A stretch of DNA of 61,451 nt from a virus. The DNA is taken from the IMG/VR virus record IMGVR_UViG_3300025704_000001, one strand, 5' to 3'. The notes below the pieces were generated by a model. The model searched no databases. It saw only the letters and a list, made by a program, of their open reading frames with translations, and had not been told where the DNA came from. The translations under genes and the position numbers were made by a program. This document shows positions 16,905-46,656 of the stretch, piece by piece. The stretch's first letter is position 1; each line of letters opens with the position of its first letter.

Positions 16905-19900
16905 ATGGCAAATCCAGATCCAATATACAAAATAAATAATAAAGAAATACCTGCGTCTACCATAAAGTTAGCAGCGGAGCAAAACGGTATGACTTTTGAA
17001 GAATATGTAACTAGACGCGGCGCTGTTTTAGTGCCGGGAAAGAAGACAGACTCTACAACTGCGGATCCAAATGTGGAGTCAGAAAATACGGGATCAACTT
17101 CGGCAGAAGATTTTTCGGTATCGAGGTTAGGTGATGCTGAAGTGCAATTAGATGAATTTAGTGAACCGGTTACTATAAAAGCCTGGGAAGAAGAAACTAA
17201 CAAATACATTGATGAAAATCCAGACTTAACGGCTGATGAATTATCTGAATGGATAAATCGACCAGGTGGGCCTACAGAATCTCAATACTCTTTTCAAGAA
17301 GAAAAAGAAATATTTGAGGCTAACAAAAAAGAGCCTAAACTAGATAATCCTAATTACAGTCCTAACGATTTCATTATAAGCTTATATGAAGATCCTGGGT
17401 TTAATAAAAACAAACCGGCTTTATCCGCTTATGATAATGAACTTGAATTTTTAAAAAATAAACAAAAAGATTATCCCATAATGTCCACAGAATCTGCGGA
17501 TATACAATCTCAAATTAATCAACTTGAATATAACAAGCAAAACGAATTAGAGGATAATAGAACCACTGCGTCTAGAGCAAGAAATTTAATTACTCAAAAA
17601 ATTAACGAAGCTGACGCTTATTGGAATGATGCCCAAGCAAAGCTTCAAGCAGGGGAAATAACTCCAGAAGAGTTTGCCGCGGTAGAGCGTAACTATGACA
17701 ACAAAAGAGCAAACATATTTCAAAATTCTCTCGAAAAAGATAGATATGACGAGCAAACATTACTACTAAACGAAGTATCTACAGCTAAAACCAAAGATAC
17801 TTATAGTAGTTTTGGCTCAAGCGACTTAGGCGAAAACAAAAAAGAACAAATTGAATTTGACCAAAAAGTCGAAGATGAAATAATAAATAAATTATATTCT
17901 GACAATAAATTAAAAGGTAAAACTCTTGATGGCAATCTTAATCTTGAGGGAAAAGAAATGCTTATTACCGAAGCAAAAAGTAAAGTACTGAATCAATCTT
18001 ACGAAGAGTATTTAAACGAATACGATAAAGCTCAAGAAATAATATTTGCTGCAGACGAAGCAAGCTCAGTAACCCCTGAAGCCGCTACCGCAGCTCAAGC
18101 TATATTGTATAACGCAGCTGATAAATTACAAACAACATCTACTAAACTAGCTTTTAATATAGGAGAGCAGGTTTTTGATAACAATTTTCAAATGACTGAA
18201 GATTTTATTAAATGGAGAGATAGACATATCGATGGTGGTTTTGTTGGAGGTACAGCAGATTTTATAGGTACCCTTGTCCAAGGAGGGCAAAAACTCATTG
18301 GGGAATCCATTGTTGGTAGTGCTATTTGGTTAAATAGACTTGCTTTTACAGGTATGGGTACTTTTGAAGAAGATGAGTATTCTAGATTAGACATGGTAAG
18401 CGACATGTTTTCTAACTACAACTCATTTAATTACCTAGGAGTTAGTCCTAAAGGCGGGAGTTTATCTGAAGATGGGATATCTTTTAGATCTGGTAGCAAA
18501 ACTATAGCTAATATGTTACCTTTTACGATAGGAGTAGCGCTAGCTGCCCGTAAAGGTGATATGAAAGGTCTAAAAAACGCTTACTCTTTATTAAAAGGAA
18601 TGGGGGCAAGTGCTAGCACCATAAATAAAATAAAAATGGGCGGGTTTGCTTTTAGAGCAACCGTTAATGATAATTACATGGAAGGTAAGCAAATGGGGTT
18701 AGATGACAGTCAAGCTCTTGCTTATTCAAGCATGGCATCCACTGCTACGGCTGTAGTGCAGGGTATCATGCCTGATGTAAATTTCTTTAAAACCAACATA
18801 GGTAAATCTATGTTAAATACCGTTGTAGAAAACTTAAAGAAAGCAACTACAAAAGAAGCTAGAAAAGCGGTAGGAAAGCAGTTTGTTAATAGTCTTTTAG
18901 GAGAGATTGGTGAGGAAGAGGCTGAATTATTACTTCAAGATATAGCTAAAATAACTGTAGGCTTAAGTAATGAAACCAAATTTACTGATTTTGACACTCA
19001 ATTTGAAACCATAGGAGGAACAATCCTTTTAGCAGGTGGTACTTCTACGGTAATGGCTCCTACTCAATTTAGTAATTTTAAAAATAAAATATATAATCAA
19101 TACAGAACTCAAGGTGCTGATATAATAAAAACTTTACAAGAAAGCAAAAAAGTTGTAGAGACTAAATTAAAAAGAGCTAGAACTCAACAAAGTAAAGACG
19201 CTGCTCAACGCCAATTAGACGAAATAAATTCGGCTATAGACTATGGAGGCGATATTATAAAAGCTATTAATGTTGCTCCTGATGTAATGAATGACGAGCA
19301 AATAGATTTGCTTATACAAAAAAATCAATTACTAGAGAGAAAAGCAAAAGCAGATAAAAGATACACAAAGGGGATTGATGCAGAAATTGAAGCTATTGAT
19401 GCTAAAATAGAAGCTTCTCAAGTTAAGCAACAATCTTCAATTATAGAAGAAAGAACAGAAGCTGGTACTAAAAAAATAGCAGACGCTTTAGGTATTACTT
19501 TTGAAAAAGGTAACAAGGCAAAAATTAGTGAACTAATAGCTCAAGAAAATGCAGCTAGAGAAGAAAGAAACAAAGGAAAAAGCAAAGCTAATAAAGAAGA
19601 TTTAATAAATGTGAATGAGGCTTTAGCTCAAAACGGATTTATTATACAAAATGCGGATGGCACTCAAACCATAGCGGTTAATGAAGACGTTGCAGGTACA
19701 AATAAAGCAGTAACCACAGCTCAGCATGAATTACTACATGGAGTGTTGCTTAAAACCATTACAGACAATCCTGGAGCAATAGTACAAATGGGCAATGCTC
19801 TTAGATCTGAAATTGATAAAATGTTACCTAATGACATTAGTTTTAACAATGTTTATATTCAAGGTAGACTCGAAGCTTATAAGGATTCTCCGTCTAGCGT

Positions 19901-22900
19901 AAAAGCTGAGGAATTACTTACTATATTTTCAGAAGGATTAACCCAAGGATTTATATCGTTTGAAGAAAACGCTTTTACCAAAATAGGTGATTTTATTCGC
20001 CAAGGGTTACAAAGAGCTGGTATGAATGTTACTTTTAATTCAGGTAGAGACGTATTTAATTTTATAAAAGATTTTAATAAAAGTGTAATTGAAGGAAAAG
20101 GATTAGGTAAAGGATTAACTAAAGCAGCTAAAGAAGGAGCAAAAGTTGGTAAAAAACTTGGAAGCACTAGTGCGTTTTTATATAACGCAAATTTTGAAGC
20201 AAACATACAAAATGAATACAATAGTTCTAAACTAGAATTACCTAAAAAAGCTTTAAAAATAGCTATGGCCTACAGGTCACGAGTACAAGAACTAATAAAC
20301 AAATCTTCTAACGACGTTTTTGGTACCGCTGAAAAAGCAAACGCTGTTGAATACGCTTTAATTGGTAAAAATAACCCCAACAGTATATATAACACCGTGT
20401 TAAATTATGATAATAATTCCGGTATTACATTAGACGATACTATAGGTAAAACGGTTTCAGGTATTGGGGAAACTGCTGTTACTGAAAAATACTCCAAAGA
20501 AGGACCTAAATCTGTTTTGAACGAAATTAACAATTTAGTTCCACCTAGTGTTAAAACTCAAGCAGACTATTTTTCACCTAAAGTTTTTAATCCTATATAC
20601 AATGCTACCTTACCAAACGGTGTTATTAGCAATTACATAAAGTCAAAATCACCTAGTAAAGAAGTTGGAGAAAAAGCTATAGCGGGAATACAAGATCGAT
20701 TAGTTAACTATGATCCAGCAGCAGAAAGAAAGAAAGCTGGAAACAAAGAGCCCATTACTTTTGGCGAGTTTATATTCGCTAACACAAATTTCATTAAGTT
20801 AGATGCTAAAAAAGCTTTATTTAAAGAAAGTGAAGCCGCTAAGAAAACTACAGACTTAGATACTAAAGAAGCACAGAGTAAAATTGCTGAAGATGATGCT
20901 GTTAAAAAAGATAGACCTAAATTTAGGAAACTAATTGACAGTAGCGTTTTACCCGGTTTTACTATTAAAGAAATTGGCGGTAAATTAACTAAAGTTTTAA
21001 AAGTATTAAAATCTAAGCTTGATGCTAAAGTTTCTATAAACAAATCGGTTTCACCTTTAATCGCTGAGATAAAGAAAGCAATGGGTAAGCAAGCTGATAT
21101 TGATCTTAAAAAGGCTATGGGTGGAAAAGCCGATGCACAACTACAAAAATGGTTGTTAAAGAATAAGAAGGCAATACTAGAGAACATGACAACCACTTGG
21201 TTAATGGGCGCGATTCCTAAGGCTATTCAAAAATCCGTGGGAGGTACGTATAAAGTGGATTCTAATGGAACAAGAGTTAAAGATTCTTATGGAGACTTTG
21301 TATTTGTACCAAACTTTACAAGTGATTGGCAAGGTAAGACTATAGATAGAGAGAAGACATCGACAAACAAGTTAGGAAAAACTGCTGGAGGAGATATAGT
21401 TAGAAGATTACCTAATATAGCGACTGCTTTAAGTGACGCTGACTTCGTTGGATCTGTGTTACAGGATGTAAGTATAGATGCTGATGGTAAGATGACCTCA
21501 GGAGCTCCTATACGAGGCAAGAAAGAGTCTATGGCTAAAGCTATAGCTGAAGAAATATCATTAGAGATATTCAACAAAGAGTTACAAGACGAAAACAGTG
21601 AAATAAGTAAGGCTTTTGAAAATAATCAAGTTGCCAGAGGTGTTGTTTTGGTAGATAACTTCGTTGAAGATGTAGCTAGGCAATCTGAAAGAGGTACCGT
21701 TAAGTTTTCTAAGGCGGCAATAAGATTGGGGGTAGCATCTGATATTATAGATGGCATAAATACAGAAGAATTTAAAAATAGATTTTTCACGCATGCCAAC
21801 GACCCTAAAAACAAACTACCTCTTTACACTTCTTTAATAGAACAATTCCAGAGATACTCAATAGAAGACCTTAAGGTAAGTGATTTAAGAACAATAGCAG
21901 CTGAACTAAGCAAAGATTATACATTTAAACCTTTTGGAGAAATAGGTATTGAAAGAATACAAGAAACCGAGGGTGTTTTAAAAACGCTTAAGTATATACT
22001 AGAAAACACTAAAGAAGGCCTTACTAGGGGCAATAGCTATGCTACTGCTCAACAAATATATCAAAGCGTAGACACTAAACTTGACGAAAAAACAATACAG
22101 GGATTAAACGAAGGTAGAGCAGCTGTTAAGAAAGTTGTGGAAGTGCTGGTTGATCAAGGTTTCACTGGTAATGAAATTAAGAATATATTTGTAGCCGTAT
22201 ACAGCCCTAGTGGGTTAGGAGGCTTTAAAGGCAAGCTAAATAAAGATGGAAAAACCAGAGCTACACCTGATAGTGACATTTTAGTAGAAAGTGATTTAGG
22301 GCTGCCGAATTACAAGAAGGATACTGAAACCGGAATGCCAACTACGCAAATTGAGAATAGAGGATCTTTTATGGTCAGTGTATCTGATTTTGAACAGAAT
22401 TTTCTTAGAGGCATTGAAATGGGGGATAAAGTTTCCACCAGAACGGACGCTTACACTAAAAATTTCTGGTCAAAAGATAACTCTGTATACAATAAGTTGG
22501 ATAACGAAGGTAAAAAAGAATACCTACAAGAATTACAAGAAGGTAAAAAAGAATTTCAAGCCAGCTTAATAAAATTTATAGAAGCAGTTAACAAAGCAGA
22601 TATATCACCAGCAGCGCAAAGAACTTTAATTAGATTGCCTTTTGCAGCAATGGATGGACTGGGTAAAATTACTTCAGCTCCTAGATGGATGCCTGCCAAA
22701 CTAGACGGCACGTTATTAAGCTTAAAAGACTTAGTTAAGCTTGGATTTGGTAGAAAAGACGGTAAGATTGATAAAGGTGTGTTTGAACATACAAAACCCG
22801 CTAATAGAATGGCTATAGCAGCTTACATATATTCTATGACTGGTAAAAAAGCTGACCTGGATATTCTAATAGAAGAACTTTCTGATTTTGACACAGCTTT

Positions 22901-25900
22901 TATTACGGAAGGCATGGATAAGGGTTTAGTAAGAAACAAACTGCAATCACTTATGGGCCTTAATTATGTTCGTGGAGCAGGCGTTATGACAACCAGGTAT
23001 GCGGAAATGATCCAGGAAATGAATAAAGCTGGGGTAACTTTCTATGACGCTAAAAATAATACCTTTTTAAGCCCTGCTGGAGCCCTTGGCCCGCAATTGA
23101 ATCAGGAAATGGAAAACAATCTTGCTCCTGTAAAAACAGAACAAAAGGCTATCAATAATGCTAGAAGTATTAAGTGGTCTCAATCACCTAAAAAAATAAG
23201 GGTATTTGATTTCGACGATACATTAGCTCGTACAAAAAGTAATGTGCTATACACAATGCCTGACGGAACTACTGGTAAAATTGATGCGGCTACTTTTGCT
23301 AAAGACGCGGGTAAGATGGAAGCTGAAGGTGCTCAATGGGATTTTTCTGAGTTTAGTAAAGTAATGAATGGACAAGCTGGACCTTTGCTTGAGGTTGCTA
23401 AAATTATAGCAGACAAAAGAGGAACTAAAGATGTATTTGTTTTAACAGCAAGACCTGCTGATGCTGCTGGTCCTATTCAAGAATTTCTTAGTGAGCTAGG
23501 ATTAGATATACCTTTAGAAAATATTACTGGGTTAGGCAACGGAACACCTAAAGCTAAAGCTGATTGGATTATAGATAAAGTAGCTGATGGCTACAACGAC
23601 TTTTATTTTGCTGATGATCACACAGGAAATGTTAAAGCAGTTAAAGACGCTTTAGATACTTTCGATGTTAAAGGCAAAGTTCAGTTAGCTAAAGTTAAGT
23701 TTTCACAAAGCTTAGACACTAAGTTTAATGATATGATCGAACGCCAAAAAGGTGTGGAATCGTTTAAAGAGTTTTCTAAAGCAACCGCTCAGAGAAGAGG
23801 TAAAAAAACAGGTAAGTTTAAATTCTTTATATCTCCATCAGCAGAAGATTTTAGAGGATTAACTCAATACAAATTTGCTGGTAAAGGAAAGCAAGGTGAA
23901 GCTGACCAAAAGTTTTTTGAAGAAAGTTTGATGGATCCTTATTTCCAAGGGGTTGCGGCATTAGAATCAGCAAGGCAAACAATCAAAGAAGACACGAAGG
24001 CTTTACTTAAAACCTTTAAGCCAGTTAGAAAGAAGCTAAATAAACTAATAAAAGGTGAGCAGTATACTTATGACGCTGCTGTTCGAGTTTACTTATGGAA
24101 TAAAGCTGGAGAAGAAGTGCCTGGACTTTCTAAAAGAGACAACAAGAAATTGAACGATCTTGTAGCTAATGATCCTGAATTAAGCAGCTTTGCAGATGGA
24201 TTATTAATAGTATCTAAGAAAGACGCGTGGCCAGCTCCTAGTGAATATTGGATGGCTCAGACGACCTTAAGCGACTTAAATAACCTAACTGAAAAAACAA
24301 ATAGAAAAGAATACTTAGCTGAATTCATTGAGAATGTGGATATTATATTTAGCGAAAAGAATCTAAATAAAGTAGAAGCGCTGTATGGAGAAGCTTCTAG
24401 GAAAGCTATTGAGAACTCTATATACGCAATGAAGTCCGGTAGTAATAGCCCAAACCAAAGTGGTGACGCTATAACTAGTAAATGGATGAACTGGGTTAAC
24501 AGCTCTATTGGTACAATAATGTTTTTTAACAGAAGATCTGCAGTACTGCAAACTCTTTCTGCAGCTAACTTTATAAACTGGTCTGATAACAATCCAGCTA
24601 AAGCGGCAATAGCATTTGCAAATCAGCCACAATACTGGAAAGACTTTGTAACAATATTTAACTCAGATAAATTAAAGCAACGTAGAGGTGGTTTGAAATC
24701 AGATGTTCAAGAAGCTGAAATTGCTAATGCTGCTAAGAATTCTCAGGATAAAGCTCAAGCTGTTATTTCATATATACTAAAGATAGGTTTTACACCAACG
24801 CAAATTGCGGATAGTTTTGCTATCTCGATGGGTGGGGCTACGTTGTATCGTAATAGAATCAATACCTACAAAAAGCAGGGTCTTAGTCTAAAGGAAGCGG
24901 AAACAAAAGCTTTTGAGGATTTTAGTAAATTGTCAGACGAAGCTCAGCAGTCAGGTGATCCTGCATTAGTCTCTCAACAACAGCGAAGCGTTGCGGGACG
25001 TCTTATCTTGTCGTTTCAAAACACAACGATGCAATACACTAGACTTATGAAAAAGTCTGGCCAGGACCTTATAAATGGACGTGGGGATGCAAAGACACAT
25101 ATATCTAAGATACTTTATTATGGAGCTATACAAAACTTTTTGTTTAACGCGTTGTCAAAAACAGCGTTTGCATTAATACCTGGATTCGAAGAAGAAGATG
25201 AAGAAGATGAAGATAAAAAGAATCAAGCTATAGAAAAGAAAGCTGCTGGTATATTAGACGGTATGGCTGATTCGGTTATACGAGGTACTGGAATATACGG
25301 AGCTATATTTACTACTTTAAAGAATTCGATATCTACATGGAAAAGAGAAGACGAGAAAGGTTTTACAGGAGATCAAACCAAGACAATTATTGAACTAGCA
25401 AACCTAGCACCGGCAATAGGTTCTAAACTTAGAAAAGTTTATTCAAGCATTCAGACACGGCAATTTGATAGGGATATTATAGAGAAGCATCCTTGGGATG
25501 TTACAATAAATGGTAAGTTTAATCCATCATCAACGTATACTATAATAGCTAACTTATCTTCTGCTGCTTTTAATGTACCACTTGATAGAGCTTTAGCGGA
25601 AGCTAGGAGTGTAGGGGAAATGTTGGACGACAGAAATAGCAAGTTTCAAAGAATAGCATTAGCTTTAGGTTGGAGAACATGGAACGTTGGCGCCAAGAAT
25701 GAAGAGTTTGATCTTATAAAGCTTGAAGGTAAAGCTAAGAGAAAAATAGAGGGTAAGGAAAAAGCTAAAAGAACTAGAGCTGCTAAAAAAGAAAAAGAGA
25801 AACAACGAGTAGCTAATCTATCTCCAGCAGAAGCTCTTAAAGAAAGAAGAGACAAGGCAGCAGAAAAAAAGAGAAAAGCTTTAGCTAAAAGACGAGAAAA

Positions 25901-25934
25901 ATTAAGATCAAGATTAACAAAAAATAAAAAATAA
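16905..25934 (+). CDS. Giant multidomain (polyvalent-type) virion protein, 3009 aa. It carries an HExxH metallopeptidase motif and an embedded HAD-family hydrolase domain.
   Basis: 9-kb uninterrupted ORF. HELLH is at nt 19725-19739. HAD motifs are DFDDT (about nt 23208), VLTARP, K and FADDH (about 23190-23660). There is an acidic EEEDEEDED run near 25190 and a K/R-rich C-terminus. Confidence 0.85.
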   Translation: MANPDPIYKINNKEIPASTIKLAAEQNGMTFEEYVTRRGAVLVPGKKTDSTTADPNVESENTGSTSAEDFSVSRLGDAEVQLDEFSEPVTIKAWEEETNKYIDENPDLTADELSEWINRPGGPTESQYSFQEEKEIFEANKKEPKLDNPNYSPNDFIISLYEDPGFNKNKPALSAYDNELEFLKNKQKDYPIMSTESADIQSQINQLEYNKQNELEDNRTTASRARNLITQKINEADAYWNDAQAKLQAGEITPEEFAAVERNYDNKRANIFQNSLEKDRYDEQTLLLNEVSTAKTKDTYSSFGSSDLGENKKEQIEFDQKVEDEIINKLYSDNKLKGKTLDGNLNLEGKEMLITEAKSKVLNQSYEEYLNEYDKAQEIIFAADEASSVTPEAATAAQAILYNAADKLQTTSTKLAFNIGEQVFDNNFQMTEDFIKWRDRHIDGGFVGGTADFIGTLVQGGQKLIGESIVGSAIWLNRLAFTGMGTFEEDEYSRLDMVSDMFSNYNSFNYLGVSPKGGSLSEDGISFRSGSKTIANMLPFTIGVALAARKGDMKGLKNAYSLLKGMGASASTINKIKMGGFAFRATVNDNYMEGKQMGLDDSQALAYSSMASTATAVVQGIMPDVNFFKTNIGKSMLNTVVENLKKATTKEARKAVGKQFVNSLLGEIGEEEAELLLQDIAKITVGLSNETKFTDFDTQFETIGGTILLAGGTSTVMAPTQFSNFKNKIYNQYRTQGADIIKTLQESKKVVETKLKRARTQQSKDAAQRQLDEINSAIDYGGDIIKAINVAPDVMNDEQIDLLIQKNQLLERKAKADKRYTKGIDAEIEAIDAKIEASQVKQQSSIIEERTEAGTKKIADALGITFEKGNKAKISELIAQENAAREERNKGKSKANKEDLINVNEALAQNGFIIQNADGTQTIAVNEDVAGTNKAVTTAQHELLHGVLLKTITDNPGAIVQMGNALRSEIDKMLPNDISFNNVYIQGRLEAYKDSPSSVKAEELLTIFSEGLTQGFISFEENAFTKIGDFIRQGLQRAGMNVTFNSGRDVFNFIKDFNKSVIEGKGLGKGLTKAAKEGAKVGKKLGSTSAFLYNANFEANIQNEYNSSKLELPKKALKIAMAYRSRVQELINKSSNDVFGTAEKANAVEYALIGKNNPNSIYNTVLNYDNNSGITLDDTIGKTVSGIGETAVTEKYSKEGPKSVLNEINNLVPPSVKTQADYFSPKVFNPIYNATLPNGVISNYIKSKSPSKEVGEKAIAGIQDRLVNYDPAAERKKAGNKEPITFGEFIFANTNFIKLDAKKALFKESEAAKKTTDLDTKEAQSKIAEDDAVKKDRPKFRKLIDSSVLPGFTIKEIGGKLTKVLKVLKSKLDAKVSINKSVSPLIAEIKKAMGKQADIDLKKAMGGKADAQLQKWLLKNKKAILENMTTTWLMGAIPKAIQKSVGGTYKVDSNGTRVKDSYGDFVFVPNFTSDWQGKTIDREKTSTNKLGKTAGGDIVRRLPNIATALSDADFVGSVLQDVSIDADGKMTSGAPIRGKKESMAKAIAEEISLEIFNKELQDENSEISKAFENNQVARGVVLVDNFVEDVARQSERGTVKFSKAAIRLGVASDIIDGINTEEFKNRFFTHANDPKNKLPLYTSLIEQFQRYSIEDLKVSDLRTIAAELSKDYTFKPFGEIGIERIQETEGVLKTLKYILENTKEGLTRGNSYATAQQIYQSVDTKLDEKTIQGLNEGRAAVKKVVEVLVDQGFTGNEIKNIFVAVYSPSGLGGFKGKLNKDGKTRATPDSDILVESDLGLPNYKKDTETGMPTTQIENRGSFMVSVSDFEQNFLRGIEMGDKVSTRTDAYTKNFWSKDNSVYNKLDNEGKKEYLQELQEGKKEFQASLIKFIEAVNKADISPAAQRTLIRLPFAAMDGLGKITSAPRWMPAKLDGTLLSLKDLVKLGFGRKDGKIDKGVFEHTKPANRMAIAAYIYSMTGKKADLDILIEELSDFDTAFITEGMDKGLVRNKLQSLMGLNYVRGAGVMTTRYAEMIQEMNKAGVTFYDAKNNTFLSPAGALGPQLNQEMENNLAPVKTEQKAINNARSIKWSQSPKKIRVFDFDDTLARTKSNVLYTMPDGTTGKIDAATFAKDAGKMEAEGAQWDFSEFSKVMNGQAGPLLEVAKIIADKRGTKDVFVLTARPADAAGPIQEFLSELGLDIPLENITGLGNGTPKAKADWIIDKVADGYNDFYFADDHTGNVKAVKDALDTFDVKGKVQLAKVKFSQSLDTKFNDMIERQKGVESFKEFSKATAQRRGKKTGKFKFFISPSAEDFRGLTQYKFAGKGKQGEADQKFFEESLMDPYFQGVAALESARQTIKEDTKALLKTFKPVRKKLNKLIKGEQYTYDAAVRVYLWNKAGEEVPGLSKRDNKKLNDLVANDPELSSFADGLLIVSKKDAWPAPSEYWMAQTTLSDLNNLTEKTNRKEYLAEFIENVDIIFSEKNLNKVEALYGEASRKAIENSIYAMKSGSNSPNQSGDAITSKWMNWVNSSIGTIMFFNRRSAVLQTLSAANFINWSDNNPAKAAIAFANQPQYWKDFVTIFNSDKLKQRRGGLKSDVQEAEIANAAKNSQDKAQAVISYILKIGFTPTQIADSFAISMGGATLYRNRINTYKKQGLSLKEAETKAFEDFSKLSDEAQQSGDPALVSQQQRSVAGRLILSFQNTTMQYTRLMKKSGQDLINGRGDAKTHISKILYYGAIQNFLFNALSKTAFALIPGFEEEDEEDEDKKNQAIEKKAAGILDGMADSVIRGTGIYGAIFTTLKNSISTWKREDEKGFTGDQTKTIIELANLAPAIGSKLRKVYSSIQTRQFDRDIIEKHPWDVTINGKFNPSSTYTIIANLSSAAFNVPLDRALAEARSVGEMLDDRNSKFQRIALALGWRTWNVGAKNEEFDLIKLEGKAKRKIEGKEKAKRTRAAKKEKEKQRVANLSPAEALKERRDKAAEKKRKALAKRREKLRSRLTKNKK

Positions 25935-27290: not shown

Positions 27291-29012
27291 TTAGCCATCA
27301 CAAGCTAAACAGTCTTCGCTCATTGCGTTAGCAGCAATGTCTCCACGTAGAACGCTTTCAGTTCTTGTGTAATACAAAGTTTTAACCCCTTTTTTCCATG
27401 CCTCAAAGTGAACTTTGTTCAACCATTTAGGAGTGGCTTCTGAAGGAAACGCAAGATTCAAACTAACTGATTGATCTATATACTGTTGTCTTAATCCTGC
27501 TTGATTAACTAATTCTAACTGATTAATCTCTTTGAAAGTTCGAAAAACTTCTTTAACAGGTATATCGTGATCACCAACAAGAACATCATCAAGCTCCTTG
27601 ATATCCTGCACAGATCCACCATCAGATAATATTTTATTCCATATATCGCTAGTATTCAAACCGTTATCTTCCAACACTTGCTCAAGCGTAGGGTTTTTCC
27701 TTATGAATGTTCCATTGGCTCCTTGTTCTGTGAATACATTCGCAGCCCACGGCTCAATGCCTGGACTAACGTTACCGGAAAGCTTACTATTAGAGACAGT
27801 AGGAGCGACAGCCCGAAGATGAGTATTACGCATACCAGTACCAGCACACCAAAGAGGTTCACCATACACCTCAGCAAGCGCTCTAGAGGCTCTTTCACTT
27901 TCAATTTTGATTTGCGAAAAAACTTTCCTAGTTTCAAACTGAGAAAGTAAACCTTCGAAAGGAATACCTTTCTCCTGTAAGTAGGTATGCCATCCGAGGA
28001 CACCCAGCCCCAATGCTCTCCCTTTCTGTGCAGATCGAATAGTGTTTTCGAATCCTCTAAGACCTTTGGCGCGTTGAATAAATTCCTCCATAACTCCATC
28101 AAGAAACCAAATGGCGTCGTGTATAAGATTAGTGTCTTTCCATTCTTCATATTTTGCTAAATTTAATGATGATAAACAGCATACAAAGCTATGTGTTTCA
28201 TCAGTGTGTAGTGCTATCTCAGAACAAATGTTCGTCATATGCACTTTTAATCCATTTTGTTTATATGCTTCTGGATTTGCTTTGTTAACATTTCCTTTAA
28301 ACATGATATACGGCTCTCCAGTTGCTTTTCGTTTTCTAAGAAGTTTACTCCATCTATTTCTAGCTTCCTTATCCCCTTGTTCAAGTCTACGCATAAACTT
28401 ATCACCAACAATTGCGCACTGATGTAGATTAAGCGACTGTCTGTTAACATCTCCTTTAGGTTCTCTGATTTCAAGCCACTCGTCAAAGTCGTCATGTTCA
28501 ATGTTGATATTAACAGAAGCAGCTCCTCTTCTAACTGATCCTTGGTTTGTGGCAAGTATTGTTGAATCGTATATTTTGCAAAAGGGTACGACTCCATCTG
28601 ATGTTCCATTACCTGTTATTTTAGCTCCGGCTGGCCTAATTTGATTAATACCGATACCAACGCCACCACCGTGCTTAGCGAGCATCATCATTTCTAAATT
28701 TTTACTCCCAATATCTTGTATGCTATCCGCTACGTCAATACCGAAACAGCTAATAGGCAACCCACGGTCAGTACCAGTATTACTAAGTACAGGAGATGCC
28801 AAGCATAACCAACCATTCCAAATATATTCGAAAAAGGTTTCAGCAAGTTCCGGTTTATAAAGCCTACGAGCAACAGTTTTAGCGACTCTTTGGTATGCTT
28901 CTTTAGGACTCTCTCCGTCAAATAGATATCCCCCGGATATTGTCTTCTTGTATACGTCTGTATCACCCCACGCAGGGTAATCTTCTCCTTTAATCCAATT
29001 TTCATTCCACAT
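27291..29012 (-). CDS. nrdA: Ribonucleotide reductase large subunit (compact class I alpha, 573 aa).
   Basis: Motifs NQGSVRRGAA, NICSEIAL and GLGVLGW, plus a C-terminal CLAC pair. Lies adjacent to the beta subunit. Confidence 0.85.
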   Translation of the reverse strand: MWNENWIKGEDYPAWGDTDVYKKTISGGYLFDGESPKEAYQRVAKTVARRLYKPELAETFFEYIWNGWLCLASPVLSNTGTDRGLPISCFGIDVADSIQDIGSKNLEMMMLAKHGGGVGIGINQIRPAGAKITGNGTSDGVVPFCKIYDSTILATNQGSVRRGAASVNINIEHDDFDEWLEIREPKGDVNRQSLNLHQCAIVGDKFMRRLEQGDKEARNRWSKLLRKRKATGEPYIMFKGNVNKANPEAYKQNGLKVHMTNICSEIALHTDETHSFVCCLSSLNLAKYEEWKDTNLIHDAIWFLDGVMEEFIQRAKGLRGFENTIRSAQKGRALGLGVLGWHTYLQEKGIPFEGLLSQFETRKVFSQIKIESERASRALAEVYGEPLWCAGTGMRNTHLRAVAPTVSNSKLSGNVSPGIEPWAANVFTEQGANGTFIRKNPTLEQVLEDNGLNTSDIWNKILSDGGSVQDIKELDDVLVGDHDIPVKEVFRTFKEINQLELVNQAGLRQQYIDQSVSLNLAFPSEATPKWLNKVHFEAWKKGVKTLYYTRTESVLRGDIAANAMSEDCLACDG

Positions 29013-42145: not shown

Positions 42146-42381
42146 TCCTCGTTATACGCTGTAGCTAGCTCTATATATTCTACTTCAGCTAAAAATGCTC
42201 TCGCATAATCTTCTATTAAGTAAGGTGTATTGCAAGTGTTAGGGTTTCTAAACACGCAATCTTCAACTATTTCTTTTAATTCGCTTGGTTGAACTACATA
42301 GTCAAACTCTATATCGCCAAGTATATCTACGTTAATTCTCCACGTAGCATAGTTACTCCAGCCATTGTATTTTTTACTCAT
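42115..42381 (-). CDS. Hypothetical protein (88 aa).
   Basis: ORF whose C-terminus ...DYKQNTIADR is encoded by the class I element itself. Confidence 0.55.
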   Translation of the reverse strand: MSKKYNGWSNYATWRINVDILGDIEFDYVVQPSELKEIVEDCVFRNPNTCNTPYLIEDYARAFLAEVEYIELATAYNEDYKQNTIADR

Positions 42382-42388
42382 AATAATT

Positions 42389-42700
42389 TTATTTTAAGGT
42401 TGTTTGATCATGGTATGCTTCTTGAAATTCATAAGTAATATCTTGCTCAAACTTCTTGAAAGAGTCTACGCCGTATAGTTTTTCGTATAGTTCTTTGAAG
42501 CCTTGGTATTTACAATACTGATCGTTTATATAGTATGCTATTTCGACATCGCTTATTTCGTGATCATAAGCTTTTTTACGCTCGTTGTATATAGCGTGAC
42601 TCCACACGGTTGCATTTACTTTGAATAAACCTAAGTCTTTAGTTAATCCAGTGCTTAAACTGTAACTTTTGTCCTCGAATGTTTTAGTTATTTTACTCAT
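42389..42700 (-). CDS. Hypothetical protein (103 aa).
   Basis: ORF immediately downstream of the tRNA-like locus. Confidence 0.55.
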   Translation of the reverse strand: MSKITKTFEDKSYSLSTGLTKDLGLFKVNATVWSHAIYNERKKAYDHEISDVEIAYYINDQYCKYQGFKELYEKLYGVDSFKKFEQDITYEFQEAYHDQTTLK

Positions 42701-42719
42701 AATATTTATTTTAAATTAG

Positions 42720-42797
42720 TGGAGGTGGAGAGATTCGAACTCTCTTCCGCGATAGTTCCATATAGGCTTTCTATCACGTCAATACCAGGTCACCCCA
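42720..42797 (-). ncRNA. tRNA-like RNA 1 (78 nt). It has a canonical T-arm and acceptor stem but no D-stem and no standard anticodon arm, so it is tmRNA-TLD-like.
   Basis: RNA sense: (U)GGGGUG-ACCUGGUAUUGACG-UGAUAG[15-nt loop]CUAUCG-CGGAA-GAGAG/UUCGAAU/CUCUC-CACCUCC-A. There is a G3:U70 wobble and A73. The locus is a local GC-rich island with no credible ORF. Confidence 0.45.
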
Positions 42798-42880
42798 AAA
42801 CGGTTATCTTCGTCACTTTGACGGTCGGACTTCCACCGTGCCAGCGATTAATTACTTCGCCGCTCGTGATACCGTATTTT

Positions 42881-42989
42881 GTAACTAGTGAGGATTCGAA
42901 CCTCATACCCGTCGGTAGCGTTGCTTTGGGTCTCTGGCTTTGAAGAGTATTCAAAGGTGCTTGTACCACTAGCGCTCCATGCCTAGTCA
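42881..42989 (-). ncRNA. tRNA-like RNA 2 (about 109 nt), noncanonical.
   Basis: T-arm UGAGG/UUCGAAU/CCUCA. The 3' strand CUAGUUA pairs with the 5' strand UGACUAG. There is an internal hairpin UUUGA-AUACUCU-UCAAA and a D-loop-like GCUAGUGGUACAAGC. Extra nucleotides prevent a standard cloverleaf. Confidence 0.4.
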
Positions 42990-42996
42990 TTGTTGT

Positions 42997-43182
42997 TTAC
43001 TTATTTAGCTGATCGTACATTTTTGACACAGCAAGCGCCATTACTTCAGAGTGTATAGCATTATACTCGTCGCCATTTTGGTCAAAGTCCTCTAATTGCC
43101 AATCAATACTGTCATTCATTAATTCCAGAGTGACGTCCGCAATACCGCTTGCGATCTCGTCAATTTGCTTAGTTACACTCAT
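42997..43182 (-). CDS. Acidic hypothetical protein (61 aa).
   Basis: ORF just upstream of the tRNA-like locus. Confidence 0.5.
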   Translation of the reverse strand: MSVTKQIDEIASGIADVTLELMNDSIDWQLEDFDQNGDEYNAIHSEVMALAVSKMYDQLNK

Positions 43183-43184
43183 AG

Positions 43185-43361
43185 TTACGCTGGTATATAA
43201 GTTAAACCTTTATAATTAAACCACTCTGTGATACCGTCTTTGTCTTCGTTGGCATCATATTCGAATGCGAACAGTGAAGGCAAGTTGCCTATTAAGTATG
43301 GTTTGTAAACTTTGTTGTCTAGTAAGATGTTTTTACTTTTTAGGAATTTTATATGTTTCAT
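43185..43361 (-). CDS. Hypothetical protein (58 aa from ATG 43361).
   Basis: The track start at 43382 is a TTG inside class I copy 6. The first ATG is at 43361 (MKHIKFLK...). Confidence 0.5.
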   Translation of the reverse strand: MKHIKFLKSKNILLDNKVYKPYLIGNLPSLFAFEYDANEDKDGITEWFNYKGLTYIPA

Positions 43362-43377
43362 AGTTATATATTTTAGA

Positions 43378-43418
43378 TTCAATTATATTATCGATTGATG
43401 ATCGTATTTTTTTTGTAA
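43378..43418 (-). promoter_or_regulatory. Class I early-region element, copy 6.
   Basis: ttcaattatattatcgattgatgatcgtattttttttgtaa, 17 nt upstream of the ATG at 43361. Confidence 0.55.
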
Positions 43419-46144: not shown

Positions 46145-46293
46145 ATTCCGAATGATACTGATGCGCCATTTGTGAAAGCATCGATCAAGATGGCCGTTGC
46201 ACACACGCATACGAATGCCGTGATGCCGTATACGATTGTTCCGATTGTTGCGTTAGTGATTGGATTGTGGTGGAATTTGTTTTGAGATTTCAT
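46135..46293 (-). CDS. Small membrane protein (52 aa).
   Basis: Hand-read MKSQNKFHHNPITNATIGTIVYGITAFVCVCATAILIDAFTNGASVSFGIYN. It has one clear hydrophobic helix. It is the first gene after class I copy 13. Confidence 0.45.
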   Translation of the reverse strand: MKSQNKFHHNPITNATIGTIVYGITAFVCVCATAILIDAFTNGASVSFGIYN

Positions 46294-46316
46294 AAGTATA
46301 ATATTTATTTGTTTTT

Positions 46317-46358
46317 GTTACACTTATATTATCGGTGTTAAATCGTATTATATTTGTA
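46317..46358 (-). promoter_or_regulatory. Class I early-region element, copy 13 (the outermost copy).
   Basis: gttacacttatattatcggtgttaaatcgtattatatttgta, 24 nt upstream of the ATG at 46293. Confidence 0.55.
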
Positions 46359-46368
46359 GTTGTATATA

Positions 46369-46490
46369 CTATACACGTTGTGCTGTAACCAGGACCGGGA
46401 CCGTGTGATGTGAGCCGTGTGCCAGTGAAAAAGCTAGGATCCTGCACGGAAAATAGTAGTTGCTGCTGTAATGCTATACACGTTGTGCTG
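46369..46490. repeat. Two copies of the 17-bp direct repeat ctatacacgttgtgctg (46369-46385 and 46474-46490), each followed by a related GC-rich tail.
   Basis: Exact 17-mer repeated 105 bp apart. The tails taaccaggaccgggaccgt and ggattatcctgaaccgtggaccgt are related. The region is far more GC-rich than its surroundings. Confidence 0.8.
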
Positions 46491-46656
46491 GGATTATCCT
46501 GAACCGTGGACCGTAAACGTAAAACGTAGGTGGGGGCTGGGTAAACGAAACGAGTTTGTGAATAAGGGGTAGCGTTGATATAGTATATTGCAACACAATG
46601 ACTATATATTTGCAACAAAAAATTTTTTACTATATTTTTTTTAAAGTATTGAAAAC

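Follow-up and report, generated by a model that had tools for sequence, protein, structure and literature searches.

What does a short GC-rich island set among the early genes of an uncultured virus encode? The question arises from IMG/VR record IMGVR_UViG_3300025704_000001, a 61,451-nt stretch of viral DNA (hereafter the window), in which a first-pass annotation made from the sequence had placed, at 42719-42996, a structured RNA locus with two noncanonical tRNA-like genes, one of them resembling the tRNA-like domain (TLD) of transfer-messenger RNA (tmRNA). The features claimed are all there with exact coordinates, and the structured-RNA interpretation is supported. The non-coding island (42717-42996, minus strand) carries three structured RNAs head to tail, in the order Element 2, Element 3, Element 1, and Element 1 is, by alignment and covariation, a tmRNA homologue reduced to its TLD. 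The original count of two genes was right in that both are noncanonical and short by one, since the 83-nt spacer between them is a third conserved structured RNA.

The island is distinguished by its composition and by its T-arms. The GC profile gives 0.49-0.50 over 42725-42950 against 0.29-0.37 in the flanks (the 61-kb window as a whole has 36% GC), which bears out the description of a GC-rich island. A 5-bp stem around TTCRANY occurs at three sites on the two strands of the entire window, namely the two T-arms named earlier (GAGAG-UUCGAAU-CUCUC at 42744-42728 and UGAGG-UUCGAAU-CCUCA at 42905-42889) and the palindromic reverse-strand reading of the former; the T-arm pattern at the island is not chance. 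The 7-nt strand 3' of each T-arm pairs upstream, as had been proposed (UGGGGUG with CACCUCC in Element 1, UGACUAG with CUAGUUA in Element 2). Neither RNA has the cloverleaf, with D-arm and anticodon arm, of the canonical tRNA family (Rfam RF00005): ARAGORN found 0 genes in the window, the Rfam tRNA model had no match at E ≤ 10, and neither returned an ordinary high-scoring tRNA with other boundaries. ARAGORN was silent on the window at default, lowered-threshold, intron, tmRNA and mitochondrial settings, and produced two forced intron-containing calls with odd boundaries only at 80% of threshold with introns up to 120 nt; in related contigs both detectors recognized tRNA-Gln and tRNA-Met genes of the ordinary kind. 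All that Rfam returned on the island at E ≤ 10 was tmRNA for Element 1 and a chance match to the T-loop palindrome.

To characterize Element 1 (42717-42797, minus strand; 78 nt to A73 plus a CUA trailer), we aligned it to the tmRNA model RF00023. The match, 42796-42717 against model positions 1-374, scores 51.0 bits (gathering score 47; E = 3.5e-17), with 304 internal model positions deleted and 11 nt in their place. Both halves align at high posterior probability and comprise the acceptor stem, the stemless D-loop analogue ACCUGGUAUUGAC, the base of helix P2, the T-arm and CCACCUCC-A, so that the proposed architecture, a tmRNA TLD without the mRNA-like part, is recovered end to end with the core deleted. 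The 5' acceptor strand UGGGGUG (42791-42797) pairs with CACCUCC at 42721-42727, giving G3:U70, and leads into the D-loop analogue ACCUGGUAUUGA (42779-42790), which lacks a stem, contains GG and reads ACCUGGUUUUGA in Bacteroidota-type chromosomal tmRNAs. P2 follows (42748-42778); the first-pass annotation had given it 6 bp and a 15-nt loop, and while the loop, AAAGCCUAUAUGGAA, stands, the helix is longer, with 8 bp of CGUGAUAG/CUAUCGCG and an inner CC/GG pair. The T-arm GAGAG-UUCGAAU-CUCUC lies at 42728-42744, and the discriminator A73 is followed by CUA with no encoded CCA (42717-42720). U1 opposite C72, G3:U70 and A73 are thus all as originally described. The P2 loop stands where pseudoknots 1-4 and the tag reading frame would be: the element has no mRNA-like domain, no resume codon, no tag frame and no sequence for the pseudoknots, and its tmRNA homology, in a phage genome, is confined to the TLD. 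The permuted two-piece tmRNA (Rfam RF04321) was also considered and rejected, with no gathering-threshold match in the window and none at E ≤ 10 over 42300-43400; the pieces of Element 1 are in standard order.

Relatives of Element 1, recovered from IMG/VR viral contigs with a 20-nt probe and a looser pattern, place this RNA in a family that we call type A mini-tmRNA. They occur in contigs of 25-71 kb, begin with GGGGGUGA and score 60.8-64.9 bits against RF00023. In an alignment of 13 distinct sequences (the window copy and 12 relatives), 97.9% of cells fall in standard pairs and 8 of 22 pairs show compensatory substitutions; 0 of 500 shuffles did as well, and slid registers were 43-51% paired. 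The P2 helix and the T-stem covary, A73 is invariant, and G3:U70 is present in 13 of 13 sequences despite variation of the adjacent pair 4:69 (GC, AU or GU). In all 12 relatives the 5' acceptor strand is GGGGGUG or GGGAGUG. A second group, type B, occurs in related contigs (for example loci L014, L019, L010, L032, L031 and L041) as GGGCGUGAAAUGGUUAG...AACGCAGGUUCGAUUCCUGCCACGUCCACUA; its members measure 68-129 nt and bear variable inserts at the P2 tip. Type B falls below the Rfam tmRNA gathering score and mostly keeps G3:U70.

The closest full-length counterparts of Element 1 are chromosomal. A scan of bacterial genomes for the tmRNA 5' motif returned mainly Bacteroidota, from which 55 complete chromosomal tmRNAs were parsed, all 367-420 nt and none short. 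Their 5' ends (GGGGCUGACCUGGUUUUGACAGC) are identical to Element 1 at 18-20 of 23 bases, so that the likeness to the tmRNA 5' end pointed out by the first-pass annotation is substantiated. These one-piece tmRNAs (RF00023) share with Element 1 G3:U70, A73, the D-loop analogue ACCUGGU(A/U)UUGAC, the P2 base GAC...GGA and a canonical T-arm, and most of the 55 genes likewise encode no CCA, as the phage gene, ending in A-CUA, does not. They differ in length, 367-420 nt against 78-81 nt. Because pseudoknots 1-4, the resume codon and the tag frame are missing, Element 1 is incapable of the mRNA half of trans-translation.

A phage tmRNA of this kind has been described before. The tmRNA of mycobacteriophage DS6A is listed as "TLD only" (Hudson, Lau and Williams 2014, PMC4131195; 2025 database update, PMC11915505), and a similar TLD-only molecule is a strong inhibitor of tmRNA in E. 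coli, with SmpB titration as the suggested cause (PMC4131195, PMC11915505). Compared by description, the DS6A RNA and Element 1 are both phage-encoded, hold little beyond the TLD, lack a tag frame and have a proposed role in inhibiting host tmRNA. They differ in that DS6A has an actinomycetotal host whereas Element 1 is Bacteroidota-type in sequence, that Element 1 shares a cassette of several RNAs with Elements 2 and 3, and that its kind, unlike DS6A, comprises two types, A and B, the latter with variable P2-tip inserts. Full-text literature searches found no description of TLD-only tmRNAs in Bacteroidota phages; where flavobacterial phages are treated, the papers go no further than a tally of "one tmRNA gene" or a discussion of integration. 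Element 1 is therefore a new, phylogenetically distant example of the known DS6A-type TLD-only phage tmRNA. Natural homologues cut to about the TLD also occur in organelles, as mitochondrial forms and as ~65-bp plastid forms of Mallomonadaceae (PMC11915505). Those tag-less RNAs are the only tmRNA of the organelle and have a dedicated SmpB, whereas Element 1 would be brought by a virus into a cell that has a complete tmRNA.

A third comparison is with Maribacter phage Panino (PP540027), also a phage of Flavobacteriia, in which we found an RF04321 match of 63.9 bits (L091 2487-2629; record ~27590-27732). Its acceptor strands are nearly those of the window (GGGGGUGA and CCACCUCCACUAA). Unlike Element 1, this gene is circularly permuted, with the acceptor piece ...GGACGGGAGUUCGAAACUCCCCACCUCCACUAA upstream of GGGGGUGAUUGGAUUUGAC; a permuted relative of the window's mini-tmRNA thus exists in a cultured flavobacterial phage. 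The GenBank "tmRNA" feature of Panino, 333 nt long, overlaps tRNA-Asp and tRNA-Thr and is probably mis-delimited.

Element 2 (42881-42989, minus strand; 109 nt) is the first RNA of the island and belongs to a much larger family. In an alignment with its first five relatives the T-arm and the 3' strand were conserved and the interior varied by large insertions. A scan with CTACNGACGNGTATGAGG found the motif in 65 IMG/VR stretches, and a pattern that left the T-stem unspecified found it in 85 IMG/VR stretches and in at least 120 stretches of marine metagenome contigs, none of the latter contigs exceeding 74 kb among the matches listed. From the marine viral and metagenome contigs together we parsed at least 146 distinct sequences. 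The family reads, 5' to 3', NAACUAG; GUAUGG or GUCAGG; a variable arm; a single C; UACY-GACG-RGUA; a T-stem of 5-6 bp around UUCGAWU; CUAGUU; and a tail. The window copy has every one of these features: the 5' acceptor strand UGACUAG (42983-42989), whose positions 2-7 pair with 42883-42888; the stemless D-loop analogue GCAUGG (42977-42982); a 58-nt arm (42919-42976); the mini-hairpin UACC-GACG-GGUA (42906-42917), directly 5' of the T-arm; the T-arm UGAGG-UUCGAAU-CCUCA (42889-42905); and the 3' strand CUAGUUA plus C (42881-42888), where the family tail is A-C-(A/U)-A-A. The tail is CAAA in 65 of 146 sequences and CUAA in another 65, and the D-loop-analogue hexamer ends in GG in 138. Element 2 drew no call from Rfam or ARAGORN, either in the window or in those related loci that were scanned. 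No Element 2-like motif was found in 854 kb of bacterial, mainly Bacteroidota, loci, a sample far too small to exclude a host copy.

The structure of Element 2 was examined in 47 distinct cores, in which 94.9% of cells are paired and 11 of 17 pairs are compensatory; 0 of 500 shuffles were as good and slid registers were 24-48% paired. Kinship among contigs inflates the paired-cell counts in these alignments, whereas the number of compensatory pairs is independent of it. Fourteen different acceptor-stem sequences occur, all complementary. The 1:72 position is unpaired in 34 of the 47 cores, so the acceptor stem is effectively 6 bp. The Y:R closing pair of the mini-hairpin covaries (UA 29, CG 17, UG 1), as do 5 of 6 T-stem pairs, some of this T-stem covariation hinging on where the optional sixth pair is placed; because the search pattern prescribed the GACG hairpin and the T-loop, these two are invariant by construction. 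G3:U70 is as a rule absent (the window has G2:U71) and is present in locus L057, the closest relative by gene context. An alternative 5' strand, UAGCUAG, which would give G3:U70, was rejected because the larger set showed NAACUAG before GUAUGG; UAGCUAG upstream of Element 2 in relatives belongs to a separate module closed by GCUAGA/UCUAGC.

The arm of Element 2 varies as strongly as the rest is conserved. It spans 3-101 nt, with 122 distinct inserts in the 146 sequences, and most inserts fold as one extended hairpin; the window version is common only to L056 and L059. The D-loop-like GCUAGUGGUACAAGC and the AUACUCU hairpin (CUUUGA-AUACUCU-UCAAAG) singled out by the first-pass annotation are present, but both lie inside this hypervariable insert and are not family features. 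A tRNA with a 33-nt variable region, as first suggested, is likewise less apt than a tmRNA-TLD-like four-way junction with a variable arm. Like class II tRNA, Element 2 has an acceptor stem, a UUCGAAU T-arm, GG for the elbow contact, a four-way junction and a small extra hairpin beside the T-arm; unlike tRNA, it lacks a D-stem, and neither an anticodon arm, an anticodon nor the 1:72 pair is conserved. In type A (ACCUGG), type B (AAAUGG) and Bacteroidota-type tmRNA (ACCUGG), too, the acceptor strand leads through three bases into UGG and a D-stem is missing; in this respect the D-loop analogue of Element 2 follows the tmRNA design and not the tRNA design. The strong conservation of the acceptor sequence, the GACG hairpin and the 3' tail implies recognition by a specific factor, and the hypervariability of the arm implies a payload or a tolerated insertion site. 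With low confidence, we suggest that Element 2 may be a scaffold that stabilizes and presents a variable hairpin, or a decoy.

RNAs linked to tRNA-like bodies have precedents in the phage T4 "species 1 and 2" of the tRNA cluster, the tRNA-miRNA units of murine gammaherpesvirus 68 and engineered tRNA scaffolds. In these, as proposed here, a tRNA-like body recruits host processing enzymes and stabilizes or releases an attached RNA; the likeness is one of design, and the scaffolds of the island differ in being TLD-like and in carrying hypervariable arms built from recurring modules. We also considered bacterial Y RNA (YrlA), whose ends form a stem that binds Ro60/Rsr and whose tRNA-like module is internal. 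It was rejected, since Rfam gave no match at E ≤ 10 and the ends of Elements 1 and 2 form the acceptor stem itself.

The 83-nt spacer between Elements 2 and 1 recurs in related contigs and contains Element 3 (42799-42876, minus strand), a three-way-junction RNA. P1 pairs 42868-42875 with 42800-42808 (8-9 bp with a bulged A), P2 pairs 42857-42862 with 42842-42847 around the loop AGUAAUUAA (42848-42856), the junction strand CACGGUGGAAGUCCGA occupies 42825-42840, and P3, whose length varies among homologues, pairs 42820-42823 with 42811-42814. The window copy shares the family traits, namely the P1/P2/P3 junction, ACG at J1/2, the loop AGUAAUUAA and the strand CACGGUGGAAGUCCGA. Homologues were sought with the junction 15-mer CACGGTGGAAGTCCG, so that the invariance of the junction strand is partly by construction; the scan of viral contigs gave mostly chance matches in GC-rich contigs and about 11 distinct true homologues, told apart by flanking GUAUCACG...GAUAAC. 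Across the 11 distinct sequences 93.8% of cells are paired and 13 of 19 pairs are compensatory, with 0 of 500 shuffles as good and slid registers 17-49% paired. A natural junction variant, GGUGCAAGUCCGA, occurs in L018. No Rfam match to Element 3 was found at E ≤ 10. The element usually lies directly upstream of a mini-tmRNA, 2-5 nt away, and since the elements abut, cuts that trim Element 2 at its 3' end and Element 1 at its 5' end would release Element 3 exactly.

Two side observations concern Element 3. The 15-mer CACGGTGGAAGTCCG is also found in an unrelated repeated prophage gene, identical in dozens of isolate-derived contigs (L092, L093, L118 and others); this match is chance, and the junction strand is unusable alone as a probe. 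The invariant P2 loop AGUAAUUAA (42848-42856, minus strand) holds the self-complementary hexamer UAAUUA, through which two copies could dimerize as kissing loops; alternatively, it could base-pair with AU-rich leaders of the UAAUUA type 3' of these islands.

The three RNAs of the window abut within 2-5 nt; across phages their company changes. Among 73 Element 2 contexts with enough downstream sequence, a mini-tmRNA lies within 700 nt in at least 19 and Element 3 in 5, both undercounts in that divergent forms were unscored. Based on these contexts, Element 2 is the common component and the mini-tmRNA an accessory. Locus L057 has the flanking ORFs of the window and Element 2 alone, elsewhere the gaps are occupied by further conserved modules, and at times the array is joined by ordinary tRNA genes. 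In relatives the elements sit directly upstream of varied first genes, the last RNA being followed by an AU-rich leader and ATG. Conserved hairpin motifs, six of them (M1-M6) and all short, turn up both free-standing and inside the Element 2 arm, Element 3 P3 and the tip of mini-tmRNA P2. Thus GAGGGAUCGUUAUGAACUC sits in Element 3 P3 in 7 loci, in an Element 2 arm in 1 and elsewhere in 9; GGGCGAAUGCYGUAAAGAUACC sits at the P2 tip of type B mini-tmRNA in 4 loci and lies outside such RNAs in 4. These distributions suggest that RNA sub-modules are shuffled by recombination, and since modules recur in different positions, the RNA region is a mosaic of conserved chassis and interchangeable inserts.

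In locus L018, some 60-430 nt upstream of its Element 2 (locus minus strand) lie the Element 3 variant GGUGCAAGUCCGA, a module GGCGAAAGAUACGAUUAAUGAUCAC... and two tandem tRNA-like units of ~60 nt that end ...GAGUUCGAAUCUCCCUGCGGUUA(C/U)UAA. These islands hold more than the three tRNA-like families described here.

The genes of the window identify the carrier. It encodes a portal protein, a large terminase, virion proteins and tail fibres, together with a leftward DNA-metabolism block (primase-helicase, thymidylate synthase, MazG, both ribonucleotide reductase subunits, ERF recombinase, DNA ligase and a sigma-like factor). The large terminase has 62% identity to an uncultured Caudoviricetes genome and ~43% to terminases of Flavobacterium, Cellulophaga, Tenacibaculum and Maribacter phages. 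The locus has no match by megablast or blastn among 50,697 cultured or deposited phage records, and Element 2 is in no cultured phage among them, short consensus queries returning chance T-arm matches and a weak match to Maribacter phage Panino. The terminase relatives, with the absence of a DNA match to the locus among deposited phage genomes, identify the window as that of an uncultured, podovirus-like marine phage of Flavobacteriia.

On the minus strand, the island lies amid small early open reading frames (ORFs) without assigned function; those that border it (42997-43182 upstream, 42389-42700 downstream) are small, early and co-oriented with it, and Pfam and PHROGs searches of the small ORFs adjoining the island gave no RNA-related partner. 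A terminator scan found no terminator-like site on the minus strand around the island; in promoter scans, sigma-70 promoter-like sites are there no more frequent than expected by chance, and no promoter motif of the Bacteroidetes type lies close by. A tblastn search with an E. coli SmpB query, a weak test, detected no homologue of this protein in the window, so that any SmpB used would have to come from the host. Elsewhere in the window, 46250-46650, at the head of the leftward early block, is ORF-poor and locally GC-rich (up to 0.50); it carries the 20-nt direct repeat ATRCTATACACGTTGTGCTG twice, 105 nt apart (46366 and 46471), as well as two similar TTGTTGCAA...TATA motifs; this may be an early control region or another RNA. 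In the virion-gene block, a 3009-aa ORF (16905-25934) has a weak polynucleotide-kinase family match (phrog_415, E = 1.6e-6, residues 2091-2279), which would mean a domain that modifies RNA or DNA ends inside a giant structural protein.

What might such a cassette do? The tmRNA TLD is characterized by its acceptor stem, stemless D-loop, T-arm, G3:U70 with A73, and 5' processing by RNase P (PMC3968760). The wobble and discriminator are alanine identity elements, kept in all tmRNAs and read by alanyl-tRNA synthetase (AlaRS), and SmpB binds the elbow made by the D and T loops (PMC3968760). Based on these features, we favor, as a reasonably probable reading, a cassette of three RNAs that are excised by host enzymes, of which Element 1 is charged with alanine and rivals host tmRNA for SmpB and stalled ribosomes; its transcription, processing, charging, SmpB binding and effect on the host we infer. 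The island would be co-transcribed with the leftward early genes, the simplest reading given that no terminator-like site and no excess of promoter-like sites were found, that the RNAs abut and that a leader and ATG follow. Since Elements 1 and 2 are tRNA-shaped at their ends (acceptor stem, T-arm and GG-containing D-loop analogue), host RNase P, 3' tRNA-processing nuclease and CCA-adding enzyme would be expected to excise them from the polycistronic transcript, with Element 3 freed as the piece between them. Host AlaRS would then charge Element 1, which would bind host SmpB and EF-Tu and compete with full-length host tmRNA at stalled ribosomes. Either trans-translation would be blocked, or the nascent chain would pass to an RNA unable to add a degradation tag. 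The conservation of G3:U70 suggests selection for charging and not just SmpB binding, and since it argues that charging matters, we favor ribosome entry over pure SmpB titration. Element 2, of the same design with another acceptor stem, would perhaps be an uncharged decoy for TLD-binding proteins. A decoy for SmpB, AlaRS or EF-Tu, and processing signals, both offered by the first-pass annotation, are the leading candidate functions of the cassette.

Several observations weigh against this reading. The window copy is the sole one of the 13 type A sequences with a 1:72 mismatch (U1 opposite C72), it scores 13 bits below its relatives against RF00023, and its minimum-free-energy fold slips into another register (U1-A73, G2-C72, G3-C71; U70 is bulged out); such a shift would remove the G3:U70 wobble, and the window copy may be weakened relative to its relatives. 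Four type B relatives (L009, L043, L062 and L026) have A3-U70 in place of G3:U70. The loop AAAGCCUAUAUGGAA of Element 1 is conserved and has no account in the favored model. About two-thirds of Element 2 contexts lack a mini-tmRNA, so that joint action is not required, and what a lytic phage would gain from blocking trans-translation is not obvious.

A broader reading, which we put forward tentatively, would take in the whole repertoire. At least three TLD-like bodies (types A and B and Element 2), with Element 3, would form a natural "tRNA-scaffold" system, its exchangeable chassis matured by the tRNA enzymes of the host and its hairpins swapped in through recombination, yielding rapidly diversifying early small RNAs that bind or mislead host factors. 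If so, SmpB and trans-translation would be the targets of the alanine-identity forms, and defence proteins possibly those of the variable arms.

The same features of Element 1 could instead serve the phage's own translation. The mini-tmRNA, with host SmpB, might release ribosomes that have stalled because a phage mRNA is damaged or truncated, and leave the nascent chain without a degradation tag. Conserved G3:U70 and A73 point to selection for charging, a TLD-only tmRNA has served as acceptor in peptidyl transfer in vitro, and there are tag-less mitochondrial and plastid tmRNAs, whose proposed role is in dealing with incomplete mRNAs (PMC11915505). However, lacking a resume codon, the peptidyl-TLD would need an extra release factor (ArfB or peptidyl-tRNA hydrolase), the host already owns a tmRNA, and the only experimental report cited above shows inhibition, not rescue. 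We therefore regard tag-free rescue as possible but unlikely, and give the same low weight to a defence function for the variable parts, in which stable RNA bodies would act as decoys or aptamer carriers, their arms and modules binding or distracting, for example, tRNA-targeting or RNA-sensing nucleases. The spread of 122 inserts over 146 Element 2 sequences on a conserved scaffold fits diversifying selection, the recurrence of modules across the Element 2 arm, the mini-tmRNA P2 tip, Element 3 P3 and free-standing sites accords with it, and the locus lies among early genes. On the other hand, there is no known target, no module matches any Rfam family, and ordinary phage mosaicism or selfish mobile hairpins would explain the shuffling equally well.

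A simpler account would make the tRNA-like ends mere punctuation, cut signals at which RNase P and a 3' nuclease divide the early polycistronic mRNA into individually stable fragments, and the excised RNAs functionless. It draws on the position of the island between co-oriented ORFs with no dedicated promoter or terminator detected, and on the elements of relatives preceding varied first genes, always with an AU-rich leader following. Punctuation needs only an acceptor stem and a T-arm, and leaves unaccounted for G3:U70, A73, the Bacteroidota-type D-loop analogue, the near-invariant Element 2 acceptor and GACG hairpin, the Element 3 junction, and two or three tandem elements at one site; we consider it quite improbable.

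Decay is less probable again, with very little to recommend a degraded phage tRNA or tmRNA gene or a tmRNA-derived core of a phage attachment site (attP). Genes for tmRNA are common integration sites of which phages can carry fragments, and the first base pair of the window Element 1 is damaged; yet this element joins both TLD halves via a covarying helix where an attP core would hold a 3' fragment only, and compensatory substitutions in all three elements across many contigs indicate purifying selection on structure. On these grounds, covariation and the presence of both TLD halves, the attP and pseudogene readings were rejected.

A small protein gene is the least credible alternative, and we assign it next to no weight: a 66-aa ORF (minus strand, 42790-42990; ATG at 42990, TGA at 42790) covers Elements 2 and 3 and begins directly after the upstream stop codon, but its frame has a stop in 52 of 73 homologous elements (61 and 70 of 73 for the other two frames), the lengths of the 146 Element 2 sequences are spread evenly modulo 3 (50/46/50), and substitutions keep base pairs, not codons, so that the in-frame stops and the lengths rule out a protein-coding island. 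The statement that the island has no credible ORF thus needs amending only in that mechanical ORFs exist, this one, which is not conserved, and one of 74 aa on the plus strand (42719-42943); gene callers would probably annotate the 66-aa ORF as a "hypothetical protein".

Returning to the favored reading of a host-excised cassette directed at SmpB and stalled ribosomes, these sequences suggest that the phage probably interferes with the host's rescue of stalled ribosomes. In the literature searched, one TLD-only phage tmRNA, that of DS6A, is described; such RNAs recur in abundant marine phages of Flavobacteriia, where covariation and the retained G3:U70 indicate that they are kept by selection. 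They offer a natural system in which to ask what a virus gains from disturbing ribosome rescue and whether alanine charging matters. Elements 2 and 3 and the modular architecture, absent from Rfam 15 and from the literature searched, are the more novel part. At least 146 versions of Element 2 lie unannotated in marine viromes, or are possibly mis-called as small ORFs like the 66-aa one. A conserved tmRNA-like chassis with a hypervariable, modular arm is an unusual architecture, and RNAs built in this way could prove to be a new class with regulatory or counter-defence roles in viruses and could supply naturally optimized scaffolds for RNA expression in Bacteroidota.

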